A stretch of 64,000 bases of DNA from Yuukianura sp. NJ FZ-2021 (GCA_046563655.1 CM102286.1:8122001-8186000); one strand, 5' to 3'; positions 1,031 through 22,303 are shown, counted from the first letter of the stretch. Program-made: numbers and translations. Notes: generated from the sequence alone by a model not told the origin.

Positions 1031-1218
1031 TATTTGAATTTTTCATTTTATTTATATCTATACTCATTCAGTTCATTTAAATAACGGCTATAATTATTAC
1101 ACTAAGTTGATGATATTATATGACTAAGTTGATAGTTAAATTAACGAGATATATGGTTGCTTGCCACGAGCAAGGTATTTTTATATGGAATACTCAAGAA
1201 TATGGAGCACTTACACTA

Positions 1219-2399
1219 GCTATACTTAGTGGCAAGGGAATGGCACTTTTTTCAAAATGGCCGCCGTCCTAATCAGCAATTGCATCTGAATAAGACGTTT
1301 TTTGCTCATGCGCAAAAACGTTTTGCACATGCGCAAAAAAACGTTTTGATGATGACGTCATCACCCCCCCCCCCCACTTCCGCACCCCCCACACCCCCAC
1401 TATATATCCCTCCCCCTATATCCTTTCCCGCCACGTGACCCCTAAGTCACGTGGCCCCGCCCCCAAACCACAATTGAAATTTATTTATTTAAAAAAAAAT
1501 ATTTAAAAAAAAACAATTATTTAAAAAAAAAAACAATTTTTGAAAAAAATCGTTTTTTGAAAAAAAATTTTTTTCTGGAATTTGGAAATTGGAAAATGTT
1601 TTGAAACTCGGAAATTGAAATTAAAAGTTAAATTAAATTTCCCTAGATTACCCCAACCTGAAATGTCAAGGTTACGCCAATTCTTTCAAGGTCACGCCAA
1701 TTTTTCAAGGTCATGCGCGCCCTTTGCATTGGCATATGAATTTGTGTCAGGTCATGCGCGCCCATTTCCAATTTCATGTAAATTCTCAAGGTAATGTAAC
1801 TCTTTTTTTTCAAAGTCAAGCGAGCATTTTGAAATTGTCAAGTCCCGGGAGCCCTTTTCTGGGATCCCGGGACCAAGAGGATCAAGTGTGGTGCATGGGC
1901 AGTATTTTCGGCTGGTCAGAGGATTAGTAGGGTGCCACTCGGCCACTGCCAAAACAAACCGCAAACCACTTCCGGTTAGCCTGCCCAAAGAAACCGCAAA
2001 CCACTTCCGACCAATTTGCCCGTGCATATGCACGTACAATTCCATTTGAATTTTCACTTGTGTTTGCTAAAAACATCAAGGTCAAAAGTCAAATGGAATT
2101 GTCGCCACGCTCGGAGGCGTGGCTAGCCGCCCGACTGTTGAGCCAATCAACGTTGAGCATTTCAAGAGTGGGTGTGGCTCGAGGAAATGGAGACATTTGA
2201 TTGGTCGAGACTTGCCGCTACACTCGGGGGCGTGGCTAGCTCTAGCCAACGAACGTTTACCACTTCAATCGGGGGCGTGGCCTCGGAAAATGGAGACATT
2301 TGATTGGTCGACAAAACTTGCCACCCCTTGGGCCCGCCCTCAAGCCATAGTAGTGTCATTTCCTGCTCAAACTCAGACAAGTCGCCCGGGCGGACTGGT
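1219..2399 (+). repeat. Left terminal inverted repeat
   Basis: Near-identical reverse complement of ~10224-11396; mirrored spurious ORFs appear in the track (2119..2478 + vs 10093..10500 -). Confidence 0.95.
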
Positions 2400-2912
2400 T
2401 AGAGCATCCACTTGGATTAGATCTGATGGTAGTCGCCGTGAGTTCGATTCAATCTGCCTCCAAACAATTTTTATGTAGTTCAAGCGTTTACGGAACAATA
2501 CAAACGCAGGCTTGGCGTTTGTCACTGGTATGCCCGTGTTGCTTACGCTTACACGACTATATTTAATTAAATTACGGAAACGTCTTATCAGAAAAACGTA
2601 CGGCATGGACCTTACTTTGAATAACCGTATAAAACACAACTGGCAAGTTGTGCCGACACCGATAACTTGACAGAAAACCAAAAGCATGAATGCAGTTTTT
2701 GGTTTCTTTTTTCTCCTTTTTTTTTGTTTTTTTTTCGTTTTTTTTTTAATTTTTGTTTTGTTTTTTTTTCAATTTTTTCTACTTTTATTCATAAAAGACA
2801 CGATATTTTTTTTATTTCGATGTGGAGATTAGTTTATTTTTCAAATTTAGAAAAATTTACAACAAAAAAGACTTGACACAAGGCTAATGAAGATTAAAAA
2901 ATAAACTTGTTT

Positions 2913-3898
2913 TTAAAAGAATATTTTTTTGTTTGAAGCAAGTCCAGTAATTCCATTTCCGTCAATTTGTAAAGTTTTGTCTTCAATGCCGACGACGAGA
3001 ACCACCAAATCCTTGGTCGTCGGTGTTTCAAAATCAATTTCCAGTCCATACTGTCCAGATCTGCTCGCACTATACCCGTCAGTCCACAAATCCTTGACGT
3101 CAAATGCAAAAATTGCATTTCCGTTTACAAACTTGTCGTAGGAAATGTCATTTCCTCCAGACTGACGAGAAACCAACTTGCACAAATTGTGATAGGCTAG
3201 CATGTAATTTTTGTCTTTGAAAAGCATTTCTTGATAGACCAGCGGTTTTTGTTCAAATTTTAGCAACAGACGGCTAACATCGTGAGGTTGAAAGTTGAAT
3301 GGTGGCTTTTCAACTTTTCTTCCTTCGAAAATTTCTCGTTCCAAAATGCCAACTAAAAGAAGTTTTGGATGCCTCACACTCTGGTAGGCATTTGTCAAAT
3401 CAACCGAGCTGAGATTGCCTGACACATGTTGTAGACACATGGGGGCCTGATCGTATGAATAGTTGGCCACCTTGTTTTTGGCAAACCCTTGGCGGATTTG
3501 GGCAACTAGTTTTTCACTGAGCTTCACTTGGCGAATAAAATACTCGGCCGATTCGACTGTAATTTTGTATTTGGTTGTTGTTGCCGGACCTCGCAGGCAA
3601 AATGTTGCATCGCTCTTTTTAATTTCAAAATTGAATTGAGTGTTGTGTGGGAACACTTTTTTGGTAGTAAATAGGCCGAGGAACGGGCGCCCAATCATTT
3701 CAAACGTTTGACTATTTTTTGCCAAGTTTAATCGCGCCTTGTAACTAGGGTTTGTGTCGTCGTAGTTGTCCATGACATCTCCGGCATAGTAGCCCACTTT
3801 TGACAATGTGCTGCATTTCGTTCCAAAGCCGTTAAAGAGTTGGGTGAGCATCCAGGCTTCATACGAGTATGCATGGTATCCTTGGGCAACTATTTGGC
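2913..3898 (-). pseudogene. Polinton-type major capsid protein (PY-like, double jelly-roll), C-terminal part
   Basis: AYSYEAWMLTQL...FEMIGRPFLGLF...PKLLLVGI...PFNFQPHDV...ISYDKFVNGNAIFAFDV...LEIDFETP resembles Polinton PY motifs. Joins in frame to the N-terminal part once the Sola1 insertion is removed. Confidence 0.88.
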
Positions 3899-4115
3899 AA
3901 TTCTATAGTTCCGACGAAGAATGGCGTACCTCAAAAGTCAACGACGACTTACTTCGCCACGGCAAAAAACTAAACAAAATTTGTCGCGATCGGCACCAAA
4001 ATTAACTAATTTTCAAAACTTTAATTGGGTTTCGCGAAACCGGAGGAACCAAAAACTGAATCTCGGAAATAATACTTGTTTTAGACCTATATGTTATACT
4101 AATTAAGTGTATTAT

Positions 4116-6690
4116 TCATGGTAAATTCTTTTGCTTTTGGATGAAGGTGCTGTACCAGGCAAAGTTTTCTCCATCCAAAAAGGCCAGCATTTTCTCCAAA
4201 TCATCAATCTTTCCTTCCGGCAACTTGATCATTTCTTGTGTAACCATTCGTGGGACGCGAGTTCTGAGAAAAACAGCATCAATTCGCATTAGTTGAGTTT
4301 CCTCTGCTGAATACGGGTCGAAGTCCCTTTTGCATTCCAAATAATTCTCTTCGTCGACATCGTGCTTGTATTGCAAGTGTTGAGTGACACGGAAGCTGGG
4401 AGGAAACTTAATTCCGTTTGAAGCAAGTTTGAAGTCTAAAATGTCGTTCTGTGTTAGCCTGATTGTAGTAAAAGGATTTTCATCACATGCGTCTCTTATG
4501 ATCGTTTCAATGTCTTCCGGCAGCTTAGGAGCGGATTTACGTAATTTCTTTTCGATCAATCCAAAACCTCGGTCACACTGGTTGTAACTGTGTCCTGTCA
4601 CAAAAAACTTCTGCTCCACTGTTGTAAAGTATCCTAGCCTTGCTAATTTGATGAGAGCAGACAGTACACTCCGGTTGTTGTTTTGACCTTTACAAAATAT
4701 CATCGATTTAAGACATTCATGGACAGAAAACAGTTAAGCTAAGTTCTCACCAACACAACGATCCATCCAAAGGACGAGAGTCCTCTGCTCATTCGTGGGT
4801 TGGTAATGGGAAGTGATGTACTTCCAAATACCCGATGAAATTTCGTTCGACCCTCGCTTCCCGTCATATTCTGTGCAAAGGTAATTCCACATACCAGCAT
4901 TGCTGGCGCGCGAGATGGAGAAGTTAAAGTTAGACAGTTTTCTAAGGTAGAAACGTGCCAAACTAGAAAGTTTCGGAGTGAAAATAATCTGTTACATATC
5001 ACAGGTCAAGAGAACAAATGTAGGATCAGCATTAGCAGCAACGGCGTCAGCTTTGTAGGCCTCCATTGCTGCTTCCCCTAGTCAAACGAATCAAATGTTA
5101 AATTACATCAATGGTCGATTTGATCCAATAGCGCCATTTTGCATTATATGGCGACATTCTCATCGAAATGTCGCTAAAAAGTCACTATCCAAAAAACAAG
5201 TCAACTACACTAGGCGATTATTGCTGGGGACTTAGATTTGGCGAAAAAGCGATATTTTGCATAATATGGCGACATTTTCATCGAAATGTCGCTAAAAAGT
5301 CACTATCCAAAAAACAAGTCAACTACACTAAGCGATTATTGCCGGGGACTTAGATTTGGCGAAAAGGCGATATTTTGCATTATATGGCGACATTTTCATC
5401 GAAATGTCGCTAAAAAGTCTCTATCCAAAAAACAAGTCAATTACACTAGGCGATTATTGCTGATGACTTAGATTTGGCGAAAAGGCGATATTTTGCATTA
5501 TATGGCGACATTTTCATCAAAATGTCGCTAAAAAGTCATTATCCAAAAAACAAGTCAACTACACTAAGGGATTCTTGCAATGTACTCAGATTTGGTCTAA
5601 TTGCGACATTTTGGTACAGGAAGGTGTTTCCACTACATAAACCACAGCACAGACAGAGACATACTTACATTGAGCGTGGTGAGAGTCCCTCTCGGCTATT
5701 ATGGCAGGTCTCTCCAAGGCTGTGCAGTCAGCTAATTTAGCCTTTAAGTTATCACATTTGTCGCAGGTATCCGCTTTTGGTTGTGATAGGCGCAAGTGTT
5801 TGAACTCACGTTTGAAGATATCCCGGTACACCCACTCTGCACATTCTGGCAAATTCTGTTGTCTTTGACGCTCAAGAAACAATGCATACATTTTGGCAAC
5901 AGTGAGCTCGGACTCCAAGTACATTGCGTTTGCGTTTTGGTTCCTAGTGTAGTGCGATTCAATGACTGGAAAAGCCGCAATATGGGCCCGAACTTCCTGT
6001 CGTATTTGGGGGTCGAGTGTCGGATGATTGGCATGCTTGCCGCGTTGATCAGAAATAGCGATGTTCCCATTTTCCATCTTTTTGATTACACAGCGCAACC
6101 TCTTGTCCGTAATTTGAAAAATGTCTAAAAATGTTGCTCGGCAGACTTCTAAGCGAGCTCCCATATCCAATACACTGTACTTGTACGTCTACTTCTGTTC
6201 CAAAAAAAAAATATGTCAATGTCGGACATATAAAACTAATATAGTTTCAGCCTTTCAGCTTAGCATCCAGACTACCTTTCTTGAGTTTACAACAGCTTGT
6301 TCTTTTGGTAACTGGATGTCAATAGATGATATAAGGAGCGCACTTTGACCATCAGTGTCTAATTCACGAAACTGCTGATACAGCCTTTGTTTTTCCAACA
6401 TATTCAAGTCACATCCCTTTTTGTTGCACCTTGTACATACTTTGTGCTAAGAGAAAGGTTAAGTTTAGTTTGTATTTACCCAATCTTAAGTTTTAAAGCG
6501 GAAGTCAAGTACTGCATACCCCTTGTGGCGGTTGTAGAGCTATGTGTTGAACTCCTGACCTTGACTCGTAAGCATCCCCACTCTCTCTTCTTCGTTTTGC
6601 AAGTTTATCCTTTGTGGCACCAGGATTTTGAGGTCGTTTTTTCTGGATGTTGACCCGACCAACATCCGCAGCAGTCATCTTAAATGACAT
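4116..6690 (-). pseudogene. Intron-containing Sola1-like DDD/E transposase with premature stops
   Basis: Spliced reading gives VCRATFLDIFQI, DQRGKH, ESHYTR, PKADTCDKCD, TCDM*QIIFTPKL...FYLRKL, RGSNEISS, WMDRCVGQNNN, FFVTGHSYNQCDRGFGLIEK. GT-AG introns at 4688-4750 and 5078-5668, with probably two more near 6200-6275 and 6450-6520. In-frame TAA near 4993. Confidence 0.85.
5119..5613. repeat. 118-bp tandem repeat (~4 copies) inside a transposase intron
   Basis: Unit containing TTTTGCATTATATGGCGACATTTTCATCGAAATGTCGCTAAAAAGTCACTATCC recurs every 118 bp (ORFs at 5168 and 5286). Confidence 0.95.
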
Positions 6691-7069
6691 ATTGTATAAC
6701 TAAAGTAAGACGACAAAAGACTCAGTTATTCTTTACTTTACTTGGCCATTGTCATTAACTTTTGCGTGTTGATAATCCCAACTTACCACACAATATGATT
6801 GGATTAACAAGGTGAATAACTTTGTACTTGTTCTTATTGCTGATTCACAAATTGAGTGAACTGGAGGATTCGTTTATAACATTTAAATCAAAACGAAATG
6901 AACTCTTAACTCGACTTTGACGCTTTAAAATTCCCTCATTTTTCGAACAAGCATTTTTTTTGGAATGAGATTTTTTGTCGACAGTGAATGAAATTTGTTT
7001 ACATTTTTGGTCTCCAAGGGAGAAAAAATTTCAACATTCGAGTTACGCCCTTCTTCGTTGGGACTACAC

Positions 7070-7396
7070 AATTGTTGACCGTAAGTGTAAAATCTTCAAT
7101 GAACGCATGAAAGAATAAATTTTCCGGCGCAATTTTGTCTGCATCGGTGGGCGGAGTTCCATCACTTTTTTTAATTGAAAATACTAGTTTTAAAAAAGAA
7201 TCGGACAGGTCCAAGTAACCATGCGCTGGTTGTTCCACTCGAAAGTAGATTGGATTTGGGTCTGTCGATGGTGAAAATGGTGTCACTACTAGATAATTGC
7301 CCAAAATGGACGACACATCCATAGCGGTTTTGAAAATAGGTCAAATTTCGCACTTGTGGTGACCAATTTTGAATTCACAGGCACATTAACCTCCAT
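7070..7396 (-). pseudogene. Polinton-type major capsid protein, N-terminal part
   Basis: ATG at 7396 gives MEVNVPVNSKLVTTSAKFDLFSKP, then a 1-bp frameshift near 7324 into MDVSSI...PIYFRV...YLDLSDSFLKL...APENLFFHAFIEDFTLTVNN, matching the PY N-terminus pattern (LDLF..P, PIEF, YLDL, PVNLFLHSLF). Confidence 0.85.
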
Positions 7397-7535
7397 TTTA
7401 GCACAAAAACACGCACAAGATGTTGCTCCGACGACTGCTAATTGACGACTGAGCACAGTTTTGAAGGTTTAACGTGTAAATTTTACGTAACACTGCACAC
7501 TAGACACGTGTTTACTCGTCGAAGTTCAGACGCAG

Positions 7536-7571
7536 ACTGACTAACGGTAGTAAAAAAGGCTCCCTTTTATA
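7536..7571 (-). promoter_or_regulatory. TATA + initiator promoter of the major capsid gene
   Basis: Minus-strand TATAAAAG starting at 7571 with TTAGTCAGT about 29-33 nt downstream; AAAATGG start at 7396. Confidence 0.7.
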
Positions 7572-7652
7572 GCTTTTTGCGCCAAATTTTGCAATTTTGC
7601 GACAATTTTACGTCTTTTTCGTGCACTTTTAGCAGATTTCTCTGGTTTTCTG

Positions 7653-7949
7653 CTATTGTCTTGAGAAATTTTCATTTTTTTTGCAATTGTCGCAAAGAAT
7701 TTCGTCTGAATCTGTGCTGCTGGAGCCATTTTTGGGTAAATTGTGCTTCGAATTTGCTACTTTTTTGGGCCGCGATCGCGTCATGGCCCTTTTTTTGGGC
7801 AATTCCGCAGCCATTTTCTGAGCAATAGCGGGCGATGCTATTGTTTTTGTGGCTAAACTTGCCTTGTTGCACTTGTTTTGGCCATTTTCAGGAGTCAAAC
7901 TGCGACTATTGTTGCCAAAATCAGAGTTTCTTGGTTCGTCAACTTCCAT
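7653..7949 (-). CDS. Small Lys/Arg-rich hypothetical protein between penton and major capsid; possibly continues by frameshift to 7541
   Basis: 98-aa ORF with AAAAATGG context and its own TATA/Inr. The overlapping frame ending at 7541 has RKPEKSAKSARKRRK. Confidence 0.55.
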   Translation of the reverse strand: MEVDEPRNSDFGNNSRSLTPENGQNKCNKASLATKTIASPAIAQKMAAELPKKRAMTRSRPKKVANSKHNLPKNGSSSTDSDEILCDNCKKNENFSRQ

Positions 7950-8083
7950 TTTTACACAAAAAATGCACTGGATGTTGCTTCAACGAGCACAAAGTTGATA
8001 CTGACGACGTTTTAAAGGGTTTTGGCGTAAATTTTACACTGTTTCGCACTGTTTTCGTGTTGCTTGGTCGCAGGTCAGACGTC

Positions 8084-8118
8084 AACTGAACACCTTATGT
8101 CTTTTGTGGCCTTTTATA
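8084..8118 (-). promoter_or_regulatory. TATA + initiator promoter of the small basic ORF
   Basis: Minus-strand TATAAAAG at 8118 and TCAGTT with its A at 8087 (31 nt spacing). Confidence 0.7.
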
Positions 8119-8135
8119 ACTGTTTTTTTGAGGAT

Positions 8136-9218
8136 TTATTTGAGGATTTGGGTGGCTTTTCTGACGTGAAGGACAAGTTGGGTTGCGCAGTGTGCTTCAG
8201 GAATTGGTGCCAGGTTTTCGTCCAAAAGTTGAACGTAAATGGAATTGATCATAGACTGTCCTTTTACCGCAAAATAACGCGGCACATTAACTTCCAAGTC
8301 GACTGGTTTGTCATCCTGATCGCCTTGGGGGAATATTCTAATCAACGGCAGCACCTTGTCTCCAAACTGGGTATAGTTGGCAAGATCGCACACGACAAGG
8401 AGATGTTTTGACGTCTCTCCAAGGTCAATTTCGGCCTTGGCTGGATTTGTTTGGCTAAATCCCTTGAATGCGGCTCCCAGTGGCAGTCCAAATATTTTGT
8501 CCAAAAGCGGTGAGAGGGTGGTAATGTAATCGTGTGCAGATTCTCTGGTGTATTTGAGTACAGCTTCTTCCTCAGAGTACTTGAATGTAATTTGGAATGG
8601 AGCCAAGGCGGCGTTCATGGCCTGAATCAGGCCTTCCACCGTTTTTTCTTTTGGTTCTACCACGGTTGCCAAGCTGACATTGTCTTGGAAAATGTGAAGC
8701 GTCATGCCAATTGTTGGATCAATTGCGTCAAAAACAGCTTCGGAATATTCATGGCCATGCGTTACCCCGTTTGGGAACGTGTTGGTATCAAAGCCAAAGG
8801 CTCGAGCATACTCTGCCGTCATGGTAACCAAATGGTCCTTTTCGTCGTTGGTAATTGAAAAGACCTTGTTCGTGTACGATATGACAATTTTTCGGTCAAA
8901 TGTTTTCAATTCCTTGTTGCCATGACCAAAAAACTTTATTATTCCATCCATTTTTGGAATTGTAACCGTCACCTCCAGGTGCTCGGTTACGTTTATGACA
9001 TTGTCACCCTCACTGTGGCCAAAAATGTTACGCTGGGTTTTGGGTGCTGGAGTGTAGTGCATTCCAGCAATGGCAACCTCGAGCGGTTGCTTCCAGCCAT
9101 CAAGCACAGGATCCAAATTGGCACGAAACTCGTTTGGTTTATTTTCTGGGTAAAATCTATTGTTTAAAGCACTGTCCACGATAATGTACCGCGAACTGGG
9201 TTTAACAATGACGGCCAT
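8136..9218 (-). CDS. Polinton-type minor capsid protein / penton (PX-like), apparently intact
   Basis: N-terminal YIIVDS...FYPENKPNEFRANL...LEVAIAGMHY and C-terminal LLVVCDL...QFGDKVLPLIRI...PRYFAV...INSIYVQLLDE...LVLHVRK match the PX pattern. First ATG is at 9218. Confidence 0.88.
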   Translation of the reverse strand: MAVIVKPSSRYIIVDSALNNRFYPENKPNEFRANLDPVLDGWKQPLEVAIAGMHYTPAPKTQRNIFGHSEGDNVINVTEHLEVTVTIPKMDGIIKFFGHGNKELKTFDRKIVISYTNKVFSITNDEKDHLVTMTAEYARAFGFDTNTFPNGVTHGHEYSEAVFDAIDPTIGMTLHIFQDNVSLATVVEPKEKTVEGLIQAMNAALAPFQITFKYSEEEAVLKYTRESAHDYITTLSPLLDKIFGLPLGAAFKGFSQTNPAKAEIDLGETSKHLLVVCDLANYTQFGDKVLPLIRIFPQGDQDDKPVDLEVNVPRYFAVKGQSMINSIYVQLLDENLAPIPEAHCATQLVLHVRKATQILK

Positions 9219-9339
9219 TGTAGACGGTGATTTGGACAAATTCGAATTAACACTTTCACTTAAACTTTTTTAGAAGGTAATGTTACCGACGCAGAAGCTA
9301 GTGAAACACTGAGCCGCTTGCGGCAACGTCACGGCCTTA

Positions 9340-10092
9340 AGTCTGATTCCCAATGACTGCAATCGCATGCGAATTCGCATGCTGCATGCGAATTCGCATC
9401 GAAAGTGTGAGAACCGGTTTGCGTCCACTGCATGCGTCATGCGAAAATCGCTGACGCATGCGATTTCTTGCAGTCAGCAATTGTGAACCGGGATGCGATC
9501 GACGCATGCGAAAATCGGATCCGTCGATCCGTCATGCGATTTTCGCAAGATCGCATGAGTTGAAAAATCTGAACTTTTGCGTCCGTCGACGCATTCGTCC
9601 AGGCGGCAAAACCAAAAATGTAAACAAAGCTTCAAATTACAAAAGTCAAATTCAGATTTACTTTACCAACTAAATCTAATTATTAGTTAATTATTAATTG
9701 ATTACAAGTACTACATTTGTCTGTCTGTCTGTTTAGGCGAAACTCGGTACTTTATAGGTTAGTCAAAGCCACACACTCAATCGTGAACCTATGTTTGGTT
9801 TTCCAGATTAGTTGTAACATTAAAACAGTGAAGCAGAATGGACGATAACAAAAACTGAAATAAAAAAAAATCATCAGCTGTTTCTAGGTTGAGTGCAGCG
9901 TTGCGATTGCATTGAGAACCGGGTTGCAGCAGAAAATCGTACCATCGCACCGACGTACGTCGGGCGATGCAAATGCATGCGTCGGAGCAGCCATTGGGAA
10001 CCACCTTCCGAATTCGCACTGCACGGACGTACGTCCGCGCTGCAATCGCATGCAGCGTCCGTCAGTGCGATGCAGTCATTGGGAATTAGGCA
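9340..10092. mobile_element. PIF/Harbinger-like MITE
   Basis: TTA TSD (9337-9339, 10093-10095); TIR AGTCTGATTCCCAATGACTGCA / TGCAGTCATTGGGAATTAGGCA; many GCATGCG subterminal repeats; non-coding. Confidence 0.82.
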
Positions 10093-10223
10093 TTATATAG
10101 GCACAACCAAGGACGTCACAGTAAAAAACAGCAAAAAAAAATGCAGGGGTCGCGTGGCAAGGGGTACGGACGGGGCAGTTGCAATGTAACTAACGACACG
10201 TAAACATGGCCATTTTGTGTATA

Positions 10224-11396
10224 AACAGTCCGGGCGACTTGTCTGAGTTTGAGCAGGAAATGACACTACTATGGCTTGAGGGCGGGCCCAAGGTGTTTCA
10301 AGTTTTGTCGACCAATCAAATGTCTCCATTTTCCGAGGCCACGCCCCCGATTGAAGTGGTAAACGTTCGTTGGCTAGAGCTAGCCACGCCCCCGAGTGTT
10401 GCGGCAAGTCTCGACCAATCAAATGTCTCCATTTCCTCGAGCCACACCCACTCTTGAAATGCTCAACGTTGATTGGCTCAACAGTCGGGCGGCTAGCCAC
10501 GCCCCCGAGCGTGGTGACAATTCCATTTGACCTTTGACCTTGATGTTTTTAGCAAACACAAGTGAAAATTCAAATGGAATTGTACGTGCATATGCACGGG
10601 CAAATTGGCCGGAAGTGGTTTGCGGTTTCTTTGGGCAGGCTAACCGGAAGTGGTTTGCGGTTTGTTTTGACAGTGGCCGAGTGGCACCCTACTTATCCTC
10701 TGACCAGCCGAAAATACTGCCCATGCACCACACTTCATCCTCTTGGTCCCGGGATCCCAGAAAAGGGCTCTCGGGACTTGACAATTTCAAAATGCTCGCT
10801 TGACTTTGAAAAAAAAAAGAGTTACATGACCTTGACAATTTACATGAAATTGCAAATGGGCGCGCATGACCTGACACAAATTCATATGCCAATGCAAAGG
10901 GCGCGCATGACCTTGAAAAATTGGCGTGACCTTGAAAGAATTGGAGTGACCTTGACATTTCAGGTTGGGGTAATCTGGGGAAATTTAATTTAACTTTTAG
11001 CCGCCATTTCAATTTCCGAGTTTCAAAACATTTTCCAATTTTCAAATTTCAGAAAAAAATTTTTTTTCAAAAAACGATTTTTTTCAAAAATTGTTTTTTT
11101 TAAATAATTGTTCTTTTTTAAATATTTTTTTTTAAATAAATAAATTTCAATTGTGGTTTGGGGGCGGGGCCACGTGACTTAGGGGTCACGTGGGGGGAGG
11201 ATATAGGGGGAGGGATATATAGTGGGGGGTGCGGAAGTGGGGGGGGGGGTGATGACGTCATCATCATAACGTTTTGTGCGCATGTACAAAACGTTTTTGC
11301 GCATGAGCAAAAAACGTCTTATGCAGATGCAATTGCTGATAAGGACGGCGGCCATTTTGAAAAAATAAGTGCCATTCACTTGCCACTAAGTTTAGC
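10224..11396 (-). repeat. Right terminal inverted repeat
   Basis: Reverse complement of 1219-2399 with scattered substitutions and indels. Confidence 0.95.
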
Positions 11397-11812
11397 TTAC
11401 ACTAATTTTGAAGCCTATACTTAAATTGATTTGGGGAAGTCAAAGTACTGATACATTTTTTTGATTTCTTCCAGAGAGTAACGCTCAAAAAATCTTTTAA
11501 ATAAGGACAATTACTCGTGGAAATAATTGGAGAATGAACGTGCTCCCCTTCTAATCTTTTCAACCAGGATACTTCTTAATCAGAATATTCTTGCTCGGGT
11601 TTTGCCACAGAAGCGTTCAACCGTCCGCGTCCTGTTCACAATTTAGACTTTTCGTCCGACGACTTGCTAAGATCAAATCATCCAACGTAACATTTGACCT
11701 CCACCCATGGTGGCATTGCCATGCGGGGATGACTTGTTTTCCCTTTCCGGTCGATGACGAAAAGTAAAGAAAGTTCAACTCCAAAACCATACAATATGGT
11801 TACGTTGTACAC

Positions 11813-12440
11813 TAGGTTCCATGCAATTAGTTCAAATGAATTGGTTCAAAAACAGTTGGTTTTAATTGAAAATGTAGTTCAAAAGACCAATTGGTTCAAG
11901 AGGCAAATTGGTTCAAAAGTTATTAGTTCACGAGATCGATATTGGTCCAAGAACTAAACTAAAAAACCTAAAAAAATGTAGAAGAAACCTAACATAACCT
12001 ACGAGTAATCACTATTGGGAATTTAATAACATCATTTTTTAAATCACACAGAAAAGGTTGCTAATTTGAATTTACCGCTTATTTTATTGCGGTCGCGACT
12101 AGGTGGAGGTATTGCTTCGGATGTGGTGGGGTAAAGTCTGCCCACCCTATAAGTTTACTTCGACCTATTTTTAATTTGATTAGTGTGGCCCACCACCTTG
12201 AACCAATTGGTCCCTTGAACCAATAAGTTTTGAAAAAATTTGCCTCTTGAACTAACCTGTCTATAGAACTAATTGGTCTCTTGAACTAATAAGTTTTAAA
12301 CCAATTTGCCTCTTGAATCAAATTGTCTCTTGAACCATTTGGTTTTGAACCAATTTGCCTCTTGAACCAATTGGATTTGGCTTTTTCATTTTAACAAATC
12401 GTTTTTGGACGAAATCATTTCAACCAATGGCGTGCTCCCG
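11813..12440. mobile_element. Fold-back MITE with arrays of short subterminal repeats
   Basis: AATTGGTTCAA-type ~17-bp repeats at 11825-11955 are mirrored by TTGAACCAATT repeats at 12200-12375; degenerate terminal inverted match. Exact ends and TSD are uncertain. Confidence 0.65.
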
Positions 12441-13413: not shown

Positions 13414-16155
13414 CGGTATTTTCTTGTTGTGTCAAGTTTTCAAATTTTCTAAAAAGCAATTAAATTTTAAAGTCAGTCAGCTAAAGCTTGTTAAAAGCAA
13501 AAGTAAGCAAAGAAAAGCCAAAACTACAGCAAAAGAGCAAAAACTTAGCAGCAGCAGCATTCTGAACTTTCCAAATTGAAAAATTGAACATTTGCAGTTA
13601 AAGTGAGTTAAAAATCTTGAAATTTTGAACTCTTTGAACAATATCAGCAGCATTTTGTGTATCAGTGTTGAAAACTAACCTCAGTTTCAGTGAACATTTC
13701 AGCATCAGCAGCAACTTCAGCAGCATCAGCCAATTGCAGCAGCATCAGTCAATTTTTTAGAAGCATCAGCCAATTTTTTAGAAGCATCAGCATACTCAGC
13801 ATCATCAGCAAGTTCAGCAGCATCGCCAAATTTTAGCAGCATCATTAGCAAATTCAGTAGCATCAGCAAGTTCATCAGCAGTATCTTCCGTGACCTCCTT
13901 GGCAGCAGCATCCCTTGGACGGTCTCTTCAGCAACATTCAGCGCCAATCCGCAGCAATTTTTTCGCAGCACTCATCAGCAGTAACTTTAGAGGTACTGAA
14001 TCTTAAAACAATAATTAGCAGCAAACATTCAGCAATTTCAGCAATAACGGTTAGCAGCAGCCTAAGTACTTATTAGCTCAGCAGTAAAATTCTCAGCAGC
14101 AAGTTTTCAGCAGCAAATTTGTTCAGCGCTCAAATTCTAAACAGTTAAATCCTCGTCACAAAACTTCAGCAGCAGAAGCTTTCTACAGCAACTTGTGCAA
14201 CAGCAATTTCCTCAACAGCAATTTCCTCAGCAGCAAAATTTAGCCGGAAAAACAGCATCAGCTAACTCAGTTGTAGCGAAAACCCATCATCCAGCATAAC
14301 TCCAGCCAGCATCACTTCATCAGCAGCAAAATTTGGATTTTTTTGTCAACAATTTGGTAACTAAATGCAGTTTCAGTTCACTCACTCTCTTTTGAACTTT
14401 GACTATCTTTTCTCAAGTCAGTCAGTCACAAATCAAAATTAACGTTTTTTTTTAAAGCAAAAGTTAATTGTCCCAAATTAAAATAACGATTCTGAACAAC
14501 GATAAAATTTAAATTGCCTAATTTTTTTTTCGAAATAGTCGAAAATTTTTTCTAAAAACAGAACCTCTATAAAAACTAAAGCATTTTTTAAAAAAAAAAC
14601 ACAAAACAAAATCAGCAAAGGCAATAAAGTTATTCTCTGTCATTTTTTTCCCTTTCAAAACAGAAAGCAAACTAAAGTTATTAGCGTATAAAATAATTTC
14701 AGCGAAAAATTTACTTTCATTTTTTTTAAAAGAAATATTAAATTAAATCGAAGCAACTGAACAATTAAAGTTTTATTTTAAATTCTTAATTTTGTTTGCT
14801 TGGAACACTAGTATTCCATTTTAAATAGAGTCTGTTTATTTCATTATTTCTGCTTCGCTTAGCTTCCAACTCTACGCATAGAGTAAATTTTTAGCAAAGA
14901 AGAATTCAAGCAGTGTAACGCCCTCCTCGAATTAAAAATTTGTCACTTGGTCACATTTGTCACACTTCTTGTTCACTTCCACTTTTGAATGACTCAACTT
15001 TGTCACATTACACATAGACACTGCTGCCATTTTCTTTGTAACGGCACACTCTGGAACTATGGAGTGAGTTGGTGCCGAAACGAGTTGCATGATTCGCAGG
15101 GCCGAAATCAGCGCCTCTGCCGAATTTGCATCTTCACTTCCACTGGAAGCCGCAGCAGCGACTCCCTCTGTCAATTTCTGAACTACATCCTGCATGCTCT
15201 CCACTACTTTATGCAATACCACATGCACAGTTTTTACTACATCTTCCTGTGTGTAAGTTGCCATGGCCCAATCACCCGCAGGAGACGGCACTGTATCACT
15301 AAACACGGACACTGAGGCGAATTACACAATGAATGAAATGATCCTCCGCAGCAGGAACTAGATCTGTCTTCTGTACCGAAATGGTACTAATAAATCACTT
15401 CTTTATCTCGGGACTTCACAGATTCACTGATTTTTGGTCATTCGTGACCTTTGACATGAGCGGAAGCCACTGCCAGTGACTCCCATATGAATGAAAAGAC
15501 GAAAGCCGCTGTTAGCGACTCTCATTAGGTGATTTGATGCACAATACACTTTTATAGGCACAACTTTATGCAAATTTCACTCACTTTGCCTGTTCTGACC
15601 TTCTGGTGACCTCCAGGTCACTGGATCTGCACGCAAACGGTCGCCATGTGTAACGCCCTCCTGGCGTAAAACAACTGAAAATAAACCCACCAGACTACTC
15701 CTCTGAGTCTGCAGACTCCAGATCCCAATGACCACTGAAATCACCACAACTGGAAAACCACCATCGATGGATAAATAAATATATGTATATATTTATTGAA
15801 TCGATGGAACTGAAAAATATACAACTGATGAAACTAAAACATAACTTGATCTCCCTCCGATCTCTACCAAACACGAAAACCAACTGAACTCTATATACAA
15901 TGCTCATCTCTCTCTCTCTACCACACCGCATCTCAAATCTCCCGCGGCTCATCTCGCCGCATCCTAACCTAACTAATCGGCGGAGTAGCAGACGCCAACA
16001 GCAGAAGTCGGCATCAGAATCCACGCTCCACATCTCAGCTTGTAAAAATTAACTGTGGAAGGAACCAGAATCGGTCCCAACTTGGATACGGATTGGAACC
16101 GGCAGTTAATTGATCAATTTAATTGCGTTTGAGCAACTTCAAATTCTAATTCATC

Positions 16156-19100
16156 ATGGCTGACGACGCCACAATCCCTGAAGAATCAGCAGGTTCAGCA
16201 AAACTTTTTCGCACTAACCATATCAGCAAACTCGGCAAAAGCAATTGGAAACAATGGAGCCCCCACGTTACCGTAGTTCTTCGACATGCGAAAGTATTGG
16301 ACGTTGTAACCGGCACAACTCCAAAACCAGCACCCAACGCCTCAACTTACCAATCTTGGTTTGACAAAGACGCTGAAGCTCAAGCAATAATTGTGCCTCT
16401 GCTAGATGACGACAACACAAACCAAATTTACGATTTAACAACGTCAAAAGAAACTTACGACAAATTGAAAGCAATTCATGCCGACAACAGCACACTCAAC
16501 AAAGTTCACACGCTCAGCTCATTTCTCGGCTACAAATTTCCAGAAAACAAAACGTTGGTTGAAGTCCATTCCGAAGTCGCCGGAATCATTCGCAGTCTAA
16601 GCGACATGAACATTAAAATCGATGAACTTACTACTTACTACTGTCACAAAAATTGTTGATTCACTTCCAGACGAATTTATTCCATTCAAAAAATCATGGG
16701 ATTCAGTTCCAATCGAGCAGCAAACGATGGAACTACTGCACACTCGCTTCAGAAAAAAAGATTTGGAGAAGAAGATGAAATCCAAATCATTCCAGCAAGC
16801 ATCCAGAGCATTTCGCAGCCAAGCGACAGCACAATCTTCAGCCTCCACTTGCACTGCATTTCAAACCCAAGCAACAAGCAACTCAGCCGCAGCTCATTCT
16901 AATTCCAATTACATTCAGCAGCTCAAGCGTCGCACCTTTTGCGGAAAATGCCACAAGTAAGGTCACCGGGCCAAAGAATGCAGAAGTGGCGCCCCACATC
17001 AGCAGAACAGCAATCGCCAGCGATCAGACAATGGCTACCGCCACTCCAACAGCAATTCCAATTGGCAACAAAACAATGGCGGCTCAACTCTACCGTATGG
17101 CAACAATCGACACGGATACAACGGAGGATCAGCCCCACCCCGCGGTGGCTACTATCGAGGTCAATCTCGAGGAAATCAAATGCGGTACAAGTCCCACAAT
17201 CGCCCCACTCGTCATGGCTACTCAGCACAGTTTGAAAATCAAGGCAACTCCTACGAGGCGGACTTTCAGCAGCCAATGGAAAATCAGCAGCATTACCACA
17301 ACGCAGCACCTCAGCAGTACACTTCCGCATCACGCAGCGCCTTCATGGCTGGACAAAACTCAACTAGCAACCGCACTGAATTTTACAGCGACTCTGGAGC
17401 CTCACAGCACTTTTGCGGTAACATCTCACTCTTCAGCGATTACCGAGAATTCAGCACACCTTAACCAATCCATCTCACCGATAATCACGCTGCTTACGCA
17501 CTGGGTCATGGATTAATTCCAATTCGAGTCAAAATTGGAAATGAATGGAGATACTGCACCCTTCAGAACGTTTGGTACATTCCGTCAACTCAGTCAACCT
17601 ATTTTCCGAAATTGTGATGGTCAAACAAGGTTATTCAATTCAGCGTGACATCAAACCGAACTCTCTACATTGATCCAGAAGGAAAACTTGGACCCTCAGC
17701 TACTCTTCGGAACAACATCTACATCATGGACTTTGAATTTGCCTCACCCGAAGACACTCAATCAGCATTCAGCAGCATCTCAGCAACAGCACAATTATGG
17801 CATGAGCGCCTAGCCCACGTTTGCTCACAGTACATCGCCAGCAGCACTGAAAAAGGGCAGTAATTGGAATACCAAAGCTACCTTACAAGCTACCTCATCC
17901 ATGTGAAGTCTGTCCACTCGGAAAAATTTCAATGTCGCCTTACAAATCAATTTCTCAGCCAACCGCATTCCTTCGTGGAGAAATGGCCAGCGTGGATCTA
18001 TGCGGGAAAATGCCAGTCAAAAGCTTATCAGGATCCCAGTATTTTCTCAACATCAAGGACCACGCCACTTCCTTTCGGGTCATTTACTTTCTTACCGCAA
18101 AATCAGAAGCTTGTGGATTTCTCCAGGAGTACATCGCCGTGATTGAAACTCAAACCGGAAATAAAGTAAAAGCAATTCGAAGAGACAACGGTACCGAGTT
18201 CGTCAATTCATCTTTTCTTCAATTTTGCAAAGAAAAGGGAATCATTCTGGAACTTTCCTCGCCTTACTGTCCACAGTCCAATGGAAAACTTGAACGTGAT
18301 CATCGCACCATCAAGGACACCGCAAGAACTCTAATGCAACGCTACAACACTCCAGAATTCTTATGGGAAGAAGCAGTCCGCACAGCAGTTTTCATTCGTA
18401 ATCGAATTCTACACAGATCAGGAGGCGACACGACTCCATTCCAGAAAATATTCCAGCGCAAACCGAACCCAGCTCATCTCAAGTTTTTGGATGCAAAGCC
18501 ATTGTTCATGTTCCAGACGCCAAGCGGACAACTTGGGACGCAAAGGGAATTCCAGCAATCTTTGTTGGCTATGACGGCAGTTCTCACAATTACCACTTCT
18601 ATGATTCAAGCATCATTCGCTCTCACAACGCCGTTTTCTTTGAAACTTCCGGCTTCACCGCTCCCAGCTTGCCAAGGCAATACATTCCAGCAGAGAAATC
18701 ACAGACGAATGACACAGTAGAAGTTCTGATTCCAGCACACAAGCCAACTCCACGTCTCGTTCCAGCAAGTGCTTACGGCACTGGTCAACCACTCGTCGGC
18801 ACACTAGACGCATCCACAGTTGCTCCTCATCCGTCAGCTCCAAAATACGCACTCCGTGATCGCTCCAAGCTCCAGCAGCCACAACGTTATGAATCATCAT
18901 TTACTACTATTGCTGATGACCCAACAAGCTATAAGCAAGCAGTCTCTTCCAGCGACTCCAGCCACTGGCAAGCAGCAATGGAAGAAGAAATGGAGAGTCA
19001 CTCCAAAAATGGAACTTGGATTTTGGTCCCACGCCCTTTTCATCGCAATATTCTGAAAAACCGCTGGGTCTACAAACGGAAACTCAACGCTGATGGATCC

Positions 19101-20411
19101 GTAGCTCGCTACAAAGCCCGCCTCGTTGCCAAAGGCTATTTACAACAGCAAGGAATTGATTACGAAGAAATTTTCTCCAGTGTCTGCCGTTACAAAAGCA
19201 TTCGTATTTTACTCACCATCGCTCTCTCAAGGACACTGCACGTCATCCAGCTCCAGATATCAAAACCGCATTTCTTCATGGAATCCTGGAAGAAGAAATC
19301 TACATGGAACAACCGGAAGGCTTTACAGTTGATTCAAACTCAGTCTGCAAATTAATTAAAAGTCTTTATGGACTGAAGCAGTCACTCAGATGCTGGAGTA
19401 CCAAATTCAACACATTTCTAAAATCCTTTGATTTCATAGCAACTCAGAATGACCCTGCATCTTCGTCGCCACGCGCTCCAATCAAATTGCTTACATCAGT
19501 CTCTACGTTGACGACATGTTGGTGATCTCCACCTCTGAACAATGTCTCAATAAAATAGTAAGCGCCTTTCGAGAGCCTTTGAACTCACTTCCCAGCCGGC
19601 TTCAACATTTCTTGGATTTCAAATTGACTGGACAATAGGTCAAGACTGCCTCATCCACCAATCAGCGTCAATTGACCAGTTACTTGATCGTTTTCCAATG
19701 CAAAATGCCAAACCAGCATCAGTCCCCATGCAGCCCAGCGTCCTATTAGCTCCAGCTCCAGCAGTCGACATCTCACTTCCATACCGCGAGCTCGTTGGTA
19801 GCCTACTATTTATTAGTAGAGTCAGCCGTCCTGACATAACGTTCACAATTGGAAAGCTCTCCAGGTACATGCACGCCTACGACTCCTCCCACTGGGAAGC
19901 CGCAAAAGGAGTTTTACATTACCTCAAAGGAACTTCAAACATTGGAATCCGAATTCAAGCAAACAATAACATGGAACTACACGGCTACTGCTTCTCCGAC
20001 TTTGCCTCTGACGCCGATGCTCGCAAATCAATCACTGGATACGTTTTCTTTCTTGGAGAAACTCCAGTCACTTGGGCCAGCCAGAAACAGCCAATCGTCG
20101 CCACCAGCTCAACAGAAGCCGAATACATCGCCCTGGCAGAAGCATCTTGTGAATGTTTATGGCTCAGATCATTCCTCAAGGACCTTGGACATCAGCAAGC
20201 CTCAGCAACTACAATATTTGTCGACAACAAATGCGCCATTCATCTTGCTGAAAACCCACAATCTCATCGTCGCTCCAAACACATTGACGTCCGCTATCAC
20301 TTCACTCGTGACCTCGTCGAACAGAAGGTCATCAAGGTTCAGCACGTCTCAACTGACAATCAGACAGCCGATGTTTTGACGAAGCCACTTCATGCAACCA
20401 AGCACTCGGAC
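16156..20411 (+). pseudogene. gag-pol: Copia gag-pol polyprotein (gag, zinc knuckle, protease, integrase, RT, RNase H) with multiple frameshifts and stops
   Basis: KLGKSNWKQW...LDVVTGT...WFDKDAEA (gag); CGKCHK*GHRAKEC; FYSDSGASQHF; LWHERLAH; IRRDNGTEF...PQSNGKLER; RWVYKRK...RYKARLVAKGY; KSLYGLKQ; YVDD near 19504; PYRELVGSL; STEAEYIAL; SKHIDVRYHF; ADVLTKPL. Confidence 0.95.
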
Positions 20412-22303
20412 ATGCTCAATCCACTCTGCCTTTGTCTCCGCTCTGCCAGCATTACGCTACTCCTATTCCTCTGCCTCGCAGCTCCAGCAGATTCACAATT
20501 CACGCTCAAGGATCAAACAGTTCTCTGGAGAAGCAGCTCCACTCCAATAACCAACGGGCACCAGTTAATTCATTGGGATATTCGTTTCGTCCAGCCCTGC
20601 TTATTGTTAACAAAGGACGTAGTTCATTCGGATCTTCTGGAACAGTCAAAACAAAAATGCATCGATCTCTACGAAGACATCTTCCTGCGGCCGCTCCATC
20701 AACTTTGCCCAAAGACAACATCCAACCAGGCGTCAAACGAGTCATTGACATACTACTTGGAATTATCGCCTTCGTAATTCTTGCCACTACCGCAGCCTCG
20801 ATCACCAGACATGAGAAAAATATTTAGTAAAAACTGGCGCAATATTTAAATATTAAATATTTTTTGTCAAAAACTGGGAAATATTTACTTATTTAACATT
20901 GAGGGCATGGGAAATTAAATAAATATTTAGTAACAAAAAACCCCAAAATATTTAAATTCTTAACATTACAGGCATGGTGACTAAATATTTTTCTCATGTC
21001 TGTCGATCACTCTCTCTGTCAAGACTTCCAGCAACCTAGCAGCAGTTCAATCAAAAGTCGAAACCGAAGAGCAGAAATTACTACTGGAAATTGAGAACGT
21101 ACACAAAATGGAAAAAGCAATCAACAATTTAACAGAAAAACTTGAGCTACTCACGCACGATCAACAGGATCACCGCCATGATTAGGACTGAAAGAAAAAT
21201 CCGTAGACTACACGTTCCTGACTTCCTACATAGTTTCTCGTATGCTTGTCGCTCAATCCATTTTCTTGGATGCCTCCCACCAATGGAAACAAGGTCGAGT
21301 ATCACAGCAATTTCTGGATTACTTCAACATCAGTTTACCATGCGGAGATGCCTGCCCAATCAAATTTGCAAAAGCCGAAACATGCGTCTACCACTCAAAA
21401 ACTCAAGGCTTAGAACTACAATTAACAGTTCCAGTCGTCAACTCGTCTCTTCAGCTCGCAGTCGCAGATCAATTTACCTTCCTCTATCGTCATGACCAAC
21501 ATCTCTGCAGCATTTCATACAATGGCCCTCAAAACGCAATCATTTACGCCGATCATCACTGCATCTACGCTGTCAATGTCCGCCACTCTGATCTAGTTCT
21601 AACTCCTAACAGCGAATGCCAGAAGGGAATCCAGCTTCCCGAATCTTCAAGCTTCTTCAAAGTCGACAAATGCGTACCGTTCCAGGAAACCGCCGCACAG
21701 GATTATGTTCAAATTAAAATCTACGACAACAATTACTACGTTTATTGCTACCTCAACAACATGACGATTGGACCCACCACAAAAGCCTGCCCAAATCACA
21801 CTTTCATCATTCCTGTCAACACAAACTTTTCGGTCAACGGCAACTTTATTAAAGCTGGAGAATTTCGCATCAATCATCAGAAAGAAATAGATCCCGCGCT
21901 CACAACAAAAACGAACTGGCATCTGCAACCCCACCTCAACATTGATGACATTGTTCGCCAAATCGACTCAATTCCGAAGCTTAATTTACTCACCGAACCC
22001 CCTGGCTTCCTCCTTGGCACAAACCCCTGGCTCACCATCAGTCCTGTCGCCGTGTGTGTCATCATCATCATCGCCATGCTGATCTACTACTTTTGCTGCC
22101 GCCGATCGTGAACCACCGCTTCCCTACTTCCAGCCGCGCCTGCACAACCACAGCTTCCGTCTCGAGTTTCAGAGGGGGAAAATATGCCTAACCCACGCCC
22201 AATGGTATTGGTCCCACTCCAGTCCCTTGGATCCAACTTCAGTCAACTCGCTCTGCCTTCCCCGCCATCTAACCAACAGCAGCAATTCACTCTTCAATTT
22301 TGA
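20412..22303 (+). pseudogene. env: Envelope-like glycoprotein with class I fusion protein architecture, fused to pol
   Basis: Signal-like ITLLLFLCLAAPADS; VKR followed by hydrophobic VIDILLGIIAFVILATTAASITL; heptad-like segment; Cys-rich ectodomain with NIS/NSS/NMT/NHT/NFS sequons; TM PVAVCVIIIIAMLIYYF-CCRRS; Pro-rich tail in frame after TGA 22109-22111. Confidence 0.8.
20806..21002. mobile_element. hAT-like MITE inserted in env
   Basis: 23-bp TIR CAGACATGAGAAAAATATTTAGT and 8-bp TSD TCGATCAC (20798-20805, 21003-21010). Removal restores the reading frame. Confidence 0.92.

Follow-up and report, generated by a model that had tools for sequence, protein, structure and literature searches.

We analysed a window of 64,000 nt from Yuukianura sp. 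NJ FZ-2021 (GCA_046563655.1, CM102286.1:8122001-8186000), which contains a 10,180-bp unit with inverted repeats at both margins (window positions 1218-11397). This unit is probably a defective, internally deleted copy of an autonomous Maverick/Polinton-type (adintovirus-like) integrating DNA virus. A 6-bp target-site duplication (TSD), long terminal inverted repeats (TIRs), and a double-jelly-roll capsid gene support its derivation from a Polinton/Maverick-type element, and the predicted gene content likewise supports a unit that carries virion-type genes only. Three genes lie on one strand (minus): an open reading frame (ORF) of 360 aa, then an ORF of 98 aa, then a split capsid gene. Here, we describe the boundaries and the capsid gene, and then the missing enzymes, the decay of this copy, and the gene organization, before weighing how the unit may have arisen. 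Coordinates of all features are collected in the table below.

The margins of the unit are those expected of the class. The two TIR arms are about 1.18 kb long and about 97% identical, and they have the AG...CT ends that are the termini rule for Polintons and Mavericks. The same hexamer, TACACT, directly flanks both ends, giving the combination of a 6-bp duplication and long TIRs that typifies these elements; for a typical Polinton, a 6-bp TSD and a 584-bp TIR have been described (PMC3014272). A repeat finder paired 1218-2389 with 10230-11397 via stretches of 590 nt (98% identity), 200 nt (95%), and 94 nt (96%), the remaining pairings being low-complexity stretches of lower identity. In a global alignment of the arms, 1138 of the first 1200 columns match, 31 are mismatched, and 31 contain a gap, and the similarity fades at about 2400 on the left and 10219 on the right. 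The 29-nt TIR terminus occurs twice in the window, where both occurrences are the element ends (chance expectation 0), and a search of IMG/VR with it gave no match.

An earlier note on this window had placed the boundaries at 1219..11396; its layout stands, while its coordinates fall one base short at each end. The note had also described a TIR-bounded unit of ~6.25 kb once two nested insertions of 3167+4 and 753+3 bp are removed. Both sizes agree with our reading of the flanking AATT and TAA duplications, and subtraction yields 6253 bp (10180 - 3171 - 756). Its estimate of ~130 and ~500 bp for the spacers beside the TIRs is likewise borne out, as we measured ~120-130 bp at one end (10099 to 10219/10229) and ~510-520 bp at the other (2400 to 2912).

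The TIRs contain several further sequence features. The left arm includes a 14-nt TGATGACGTCATCA palindrome that is CRE-like (1350-1363) and two CACGTG boxes that make up a near-palindrome of 26 nt (1430-1455); the palindrome and the near-palindrome are mirrored in the right arm near 11170-11265. Sub-repeats spaced 103-113 bp apart are found at 2096-2311 in the left arm, and the TIRs also hold C-rich runs and low-complexity A/T runs.

The capsid gene connects the unit to a large protein family. A HMMER search with its 328-aa C-terminal piece against 1.84 billion representatives recovered 1509 proteins at E<=1e-3, including 342 at E<=1e-10 and seven at E<=1e-30, most of them 420-450 aa long. 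The best relative, P0001 (437 aa), has 45% identity and an E value of 1e-81; by tblastn, it shares 44% identity over 325 aa with the C-terminal piece in the window. All 20 relatives whose source we traced originate in assemblies of metagenomes or runs, where seven are annotated as "hypothetical protein" and 13 are unnamed. To represent the fold, we used P0001 with an alignment of 80 of the 150 listed relatives, near full length, plus two window pieces (alignment A1); the resulting model has a pLDDT of 90.5 and a pTM of 0.89.

The P0001 model matches double-jelly-roll major capsid proteins (MCPs) with solved structures. Foldseek against the PDB returned 251 matches at E<=0.001, led by the MCPs of iridovirus, Paramecium bursaria chlorella virus 1 (PBCV-1), mavirus, Sputnik, faustovirus, and African swine fever virus (4e-17 to 1e-11), with E values of 4e-17 for Singapore grouper iridovirus (SGIV), 1e-14 for mavirus, and 3e-14 for Sputnik. 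VIA-align gave the highest score to a PBCV-1 capsid chain (Z 27.2, root-mean-square deviation 3.2, 347 aligned), followed by faustovirus (Z 26.4), Sputnik (Z 22.8), mavirus (Z 21.1), and adenovirus hexons and PRD1 P3 (Z 15.5 to 17.3). In BFVD, a protein without assigned function from Cotesia sesamiae Mombasa bracovirus ranks first (21% identity, E 1e-22), and next come capsid proteins of giant viruses, virophages, adomavirus, and adintovirus. Two consecutive eight-stranded jelly rolls that match solved structures are thus present in P0001, a natural homologue that stands in for the window's own broken gene. On the strength of this model, the largest gene of the unit is a double-jelly-roll MCP, in agreement with the major capsid label in the earlier note.

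This family escapes Pfam. The window pieces have no match in Pfam, where DJR-like_dom and Capsid_NCLDV would be the families of interest, or in PHROGs, and 28 of 30 scanned homologues are also without a Pfam match; the sole match to DJR-like_dom among the 30, in P0040, stays below threshold, scoring 17.5 bits where the cut-off is 27 (E 0.0026). Atlas language-model features of the capsid piece do point to clusters with DJR-like_dom. A PDB profile search with alignment A1 gave chance-level matches only, and a word-indexed protein search with the capsid piece found nothing, although the same search also missed the 45%-identical P0001. Among the 150 listed matches, no protein joins a capsid-family sequence to the 360-aa or the 98-aa protein. 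We found no loci for P0010 in metagenomes, or for P0001 and P0010 in IMG/VR. Two back-translated motif scans covered 52 and 28 of the 150 family members at the protein level, and none of the 28 loci that they returned (11 viral and 17 metagenome) encodes a relative (lowest tblastn E value 0.25). Six ORFs of the window were also looked for as exact entries in the protein collection, where none is present.

Next to this virion gene, the enzymes of an autonomous element are missing. We scanned all 125 stop-to-stop frames of at least 45 aa in 1100-11500, on both strands, against Pfam (E<=0.01). Only one frame had a match, a DUF7869 frame inside the larger nested insertion. None of the 125 showed a trace of polymerase B, rve integrase, FtsK-type packaging ATPase, or adenain-type protease, and the earlier statement that no remnants of these genes are visible holds. 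There is no room for such remnants, because the non-genic interior amounts to only ~125 bp plus ~510 bp. The only rve domain in the window belongs to a copia element (17851-18717). Since the published definition of a Polinton requires polymerase and integrase (PMC5499653), the unit is best termed a Polinton-derived non-autonomous unit, not a Polinton.

The capsid gene has been disrupted in two ways. A Sola1-type insert interrupts it at 7069/3903, and the frame changes near codon 25, between 7325 and 7319, which leaves the first 24 codons out of frame with the rest. The earlier note had overlooked this frame change because an in-frame ATG at 7322 comes after it. Within the aligned pieces, tblastn of P0001 shows no internal stop codon. 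Judged from its sequence, this copy is non-functional and decayed.

Both nested insertions carry duplications of their own. The insert in the capsid gene is flanked by AATT (3899-3902 and 7070-7073), has imperfect 41-nt terminal inverted repeats (80%), and contains a split set of transposase-like ORFs in which DUF7869 is the sole Pfam match (E 3.6e-8). A 4-bp AWWT duplication is described as a hallmark of Sola1 (PMC3845634), and the AATT that borders the insert at either end agrees, as a target site, with the Sola1 label. Between the ORF pieces of this insert lies an array of ~4 copies of a 118-bp tandem repeat (5117-5588; 90-92% identical in register), and each copy holds a short hairpin. The second insertion is a MITE (miniature inverted-repeat transposable element) flanked by TAA on both sides (right copy 9337-9339); its stop-to-stop frames of at least 45 aa have no family match in Pfam.

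The three genes have similar upstream regions. The distance from TATAAAAGG to TCAGT is 29 nt in the 98-aa gene and 31 nt in the capsid gene, with leaders of ~140 nt. In the 360-aa gene, the MITE sits between TATATAA and TCAGT, and if the MITE and a single TAA are taken out, these two motifs would lie 31 nt apart. The promoter-leaders of the 98-aa and capsid genes are paralogous, agreeing at 138 of 179 aligned bases, and the alignment score of 58 compares with 6.4 +/- 2.5 for shuffles (maximum 15.5, n=200). A TATA motif plus TCAGT upstream of all three genes makes the claim that each has its own predicted RNA-polymerase-II core promoter well founded as a sequence observation. The previous description of genes on one strand with a promoter each thus stands for the strand and the motifs, but not for the present state of the 360-aa gene, whose promoter the MITE now splits. 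A sigma-70 promoter scan was set aside because it has no meaning in a eukaryote. In the 3' spacer (2401-2912), we found no ORF with a family match, no tRNA, and no Rfam match; a tRNA-like/SINE (short interspersed element) head that had been suspected by eye at 2390-2470 was supported by neither ARAGORN nor Rfam.

Upstream of the capsid gene, and on the same strand, the 360-aa ORF is separated from it by a single small gene, which is the position of the penton gene in the commoner Polinton arrangement, in which it precedes the MCP gene by one (PMC4028283). It has no match in Pfam, PHROGs, the phage collection, or PDB sequences. The word-indexed search found no relatives for the whole ORF or for residues 255-360, but the blanks for this ORF and for the capsid piece are weak because the same search missed P0001. 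A single-sequence AlphaFold model was unusable (pLDDT 33). A protein-language-model (Atlas) search placed the ORF at 0.97 beside hypothetical-protein clusters from arthropods and viruses, and a giant-virus DUF5901 cluster also adjoins it. Based on position and this language-model lead, the 360-aa ORF is probably a penton, and the earlier penton label is kept as putative. No relatives were found for the 98-aa ORF, which is a putative core or DNA-binding virion protein by its composition and position.

How might such a unit have formed? In the scenario that we consider likely, a defective deletion derivative would have retained both ~1.18-kb TIRs with their AG...CT ends as cis parts; by analogy with the class, protein-primed replication would begin, and the integrase would act, at these parts. 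A single uninterrupted block of virion-type late genes (the putative vertex gene of 360 aa, the 98-aa basic gene, and the capsid gene) would have been kept, while the polymerase, integrase, packaging ATPase, and maturation protease genes were lost. The 6-bp duplication indicates that the unit, or its full-length parent, was brought into this site by an rve-type integrase. The deletion may have preceded insertion, in which case the unit was mobilized in trans, or may have followed it in place; one copy cannot tell. Later decay would then have brought the Sola1-type insert that splits the capsid gene, the frame change, and the MITE that parts TATA from initiator in the 360-aa gene. The capsid genes would have been kept by the accident of where the deletion fell and not from any biology of the unit's own. 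Polinton remnants and partial copies are reported to be common (10.1101/2024.01.15.575659), and the features of this copy (a split and frame-changed capsid gene, a MITE-split promoter, and a repeat-rich setting) lean toward the one-off deletion derivative that the earlier note gave as its null hypothesis. Four DNA sequencing runs from two studies contain fractions of 0.33, 0.29, 0.07, and 0.05 of the words sampled from 7075-9300, and no RNA runs containing them were listed.

Several observations weigh against this scenario. The layout is tidy, with both TIRs complete and short spacers, and all three genes have a canonical TATA-to-initiator spacing of 29-31 nt (for the 360-aa gene, with the MITE discounted). 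A duplicated leader of ~190 nt is common to two of the genes, and, leaving aside the inserted transposon and a single frame change, no stop codon breaks the three reading frames. In Polinton-1_CB, the polymerase adjoins one end (10.1101/2024.01.15.575659); if the parent had its polymerase at one end, a single deletion may not suffice to remove all the enzymes and leave both TIRs in place. The frame change itself could be an assembly error, such artefacts having been reported for endogenous viral elements (PMC10120064). Finally, that this unit is a one-off is an assumption.

A sub-case of the deletion scenario deserves separate treatment, since it predicts exactly one copy: a full-length Maverick may have inserted here and been shortened later in place by genomic deletion or ectopic recombination, so that the short form was never mobile. 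The region is repeat-rich and probably heterochromatic, and both this setting, dense in transposable elements and satellite, and the three later decay events suit such a history, as do the C. elegans Polintons, for which remnants of different sizes are reported at one locus (10.1101/2024.01.15.575659). Yet no deletion scar, microhomology, or filler is recognizable without the parent sequence, and in-place deletions do not most commonly leave the two 1.18-kb TIRs and all promoters intact. We hold this course to be possible, but only tentatively. An artefact of assembly, in which a full-length element was collapsed or mis-joined and the 6.25-kb layout is absent from the organism, appears very improbable. 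Endogenous virus regions are indeed prone to assembly errors (PMC10120064), but a collapse would have to keep coherent two transposons with their own duplications inside and the matching duplications outside, and the repeat finder detected no repeated sequence at the candidate junctions.

In a rival reading, the capsid-only unit would belong to a propagating helper-dependent lineage, a satellite or a genome segment, of which this locus would be one old, decayed insertion. An autonomous Maverick with matching TIRs would replicate, integrate, and package the unit in trans, and the unit would supply capsid proteins; this would take place in an invertebrate Maverick/adintovirus lineage, with replication from the 1.18-kb TIRs and capsid expression driven by the unit's own promoters. 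Complete TIRs with a clean 6-bp duplication, the compact three-gene block with individual TATA and initiator promoters and a duplicated leader, the total absence of enzyme remnants in the 125 frames, and the open frames (frame change and insertion excepted) are all consistent with this, and helper-dependent Polinton-like viruses (PLVs) are reported from insects (PMC11296320). However, this copy is non-functional, and it is not obvious what a unit lacking the packaging ATPase and the protease would gain from providing capsids already encoded by its helper. No second copy or partner unit came to light, although no search of the source genome was aimed at either. Nor did we find a precedent in print for a capsid-only, TIR-bounded Polinton derivative in the literature searched. 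The Methods of one Polinton survey state that elements <10 kb were discarded as incomplete (PMC4028283); short elements are commonly dropped in this way, so capsid-only units may simply go unreported. Altogether, the segment or satellite idea is unlikely for this copy on present evidence, and we regard such a lineage as improbable. The defective deletion derivative remains our preferred description of the unit.

Table. Features of the Polinton-derived unit, in window coordinates.
Feature	Position	Strand, frame	Evidence
TSD TACACT, left copy	1212-1217	.	read directly
Left TIR, ~1.18 kb, first letters AGCT	1218-2400	+	repeat finder and global alignment
3' spacer past capsid gene, AATAAA at ~2840, A-rich run	2401-2912	-	direct reading
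Capsid gene, C-terminal piece, ~329 codons plus stop	3902-2913	-, frame -3	tblastn, P0001 residues 119-437 at 3869-2916, 44% identity
Sola1-type DNA transposon, 3167 bp, inside capsid gene	3903-7069	-	direct reading, repeats, Pfam
Capsid gene, N-terminal body	7322-7074	-, frame -3	tblastn, P0001 residues 27-114 at 7319-7056
Capsid gene, first 24 codons (MEV...)	7396-7325	-, frame -1	tblastn, P0001 residues 1-24, 50% identity
Promoter and leader of capsid gene: TATAAAAGG 7571, TCAGT 7540, leader ~144 nt	7397-7585	-	direct reading, leader alignment
98-aa basic ORF, isoelectric point 9.6, 18 lysine plus arginine	7949-7653	-	ORF call
Promoter and leader of 98-aa gene: TATAAAAGG 8118, TCAGT 8089	7950-8135	-	direct reading, leader alignment
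360-aa ORF, intact, putative penton (vertex) protein	9218-8136	-	ORF call
Leader of 360-aa gene, TCAGT 9312-9308, right MITE TAA 9337-9339	9219-9339	-	direct reading
MITE, 753 bp, ~20-nt terminal inverted repeats	9340-10092	.	read directly
5' spacer with TATATAA box (10099-10093) of 360-aa gene	10093-10218	-	direct reading
Right TIR, last letters AGCT	10219-11397	-	repeat finder, direct reading, global alignment
TSD TACACT, right copy	11398-11403	.	same hexamer as left copy

Other repeats lie in the remainder of the window. A short way beyond the right end of the element, GAACCAATTGG-type units in direct and inverted orientation form a cluster (11875-12380) that is possibly another MITE-like insertion. 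A degenerate Ty1/copia-type retroelement follows on the plus strand (16150-22111), with copia gag, rve, SH3_retrovirus, and RVT_2 domains spread over several frames. After these domains comes a 309-aa ORF (21182-22111) with a hydrophobic stretch at its end and no Pfam match, which is possibly env-like. From 24067 to 63939, a 230-bp satellite is repeated in tandem ~174 times (92% matches, ~40 kb); this array has a uniform composition and fills the rest of the window.

If the unit is only a deletion remnant, its value lies mainly in annotation, as a cleanly delimited defective Maverick. It also brings to light a capsid family that goes unrecognised by Pfam, with >1500 relatives that are uncharacterised, and it shows that a TATA plus initiator promoter of host type is predicted for each virion gene of this lineage. 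Should capsid-only units prove recurrent, they would be the first sign of Polinton-type viruses splitting their genome or spawning capsid-carrying satellites, and recurrence, if true, would bear on the origin of bidnaviruses, virophages, and transpovirons from such elements.

Among known systems, bidnavirus segments are also ~6-kb units bounded by terminal repeats, but bidnaviruses differ in their single-stranded DNA and their capsid of parvovirus type, and a polymerase is among their genes. Defective or helper-dependent adenovirus genomes, which may retain the terminal repeats only, are replicated and packaged in trans; the defective adenovirus genomes are not known to exist as integrated, duplicated units. 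The likeness of our unit to either is therefore by analogy only. Virophages and PLVs such as mavirus and Sputnik have the same capsid fold (Z 21-23), and their penton gene adjoins the capsid gene (PMC4028283), while the PLVs associated with entomopoxviruses indicate that dependence on a helper occurs within this realm (PMC11296320). Unlike the unit, which has no known helper or free form, virophages and PLVs are 15-30 kb long and have an ATPase, a protease, and replication genes of their own.

Another close comparison is with the autonomous Polintons/Mavericks (polintoviruses, adintoviruses), which share the 6-bp duplication, the long TIRs, and, by the general termini rule, the AG...CT ends. 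They also share the double-jelly-roll capsid gene with a putative vertex gene one gene upstream (PMC4028283), and the protein that gives the unit's nearest viral structure match, from a Cotesia bracovirus, is Maverick-like. These elements measure 15-20 kb, whereas the unit measures 6.25 kb and lacks both the class-defining protein-primed polymerase B and rve integrase and the packaging ATPase and adenain-type protease. In this loss it resembles Ds-del, derived from Ac, which kept its terminal repeats and duplication, lost the enzyme genes, and shows helper-dependent mobilization or none (PMC3260210), as well as the C. elegans eri-6/7 Polinton remnants, in which terminal repeats and duplication are likewise kept and enzymes lost (10.1101/2024.01.15.575659). 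The C. elegans remnants come from the polymerase end, unlike our unit (10.1101/2024.01.15.575659). Compared with both Ds-del and these remnants, what the unit has kept is neither non-coding filler nor a random fragment but a complete virion-gene block with its predicted promoters.

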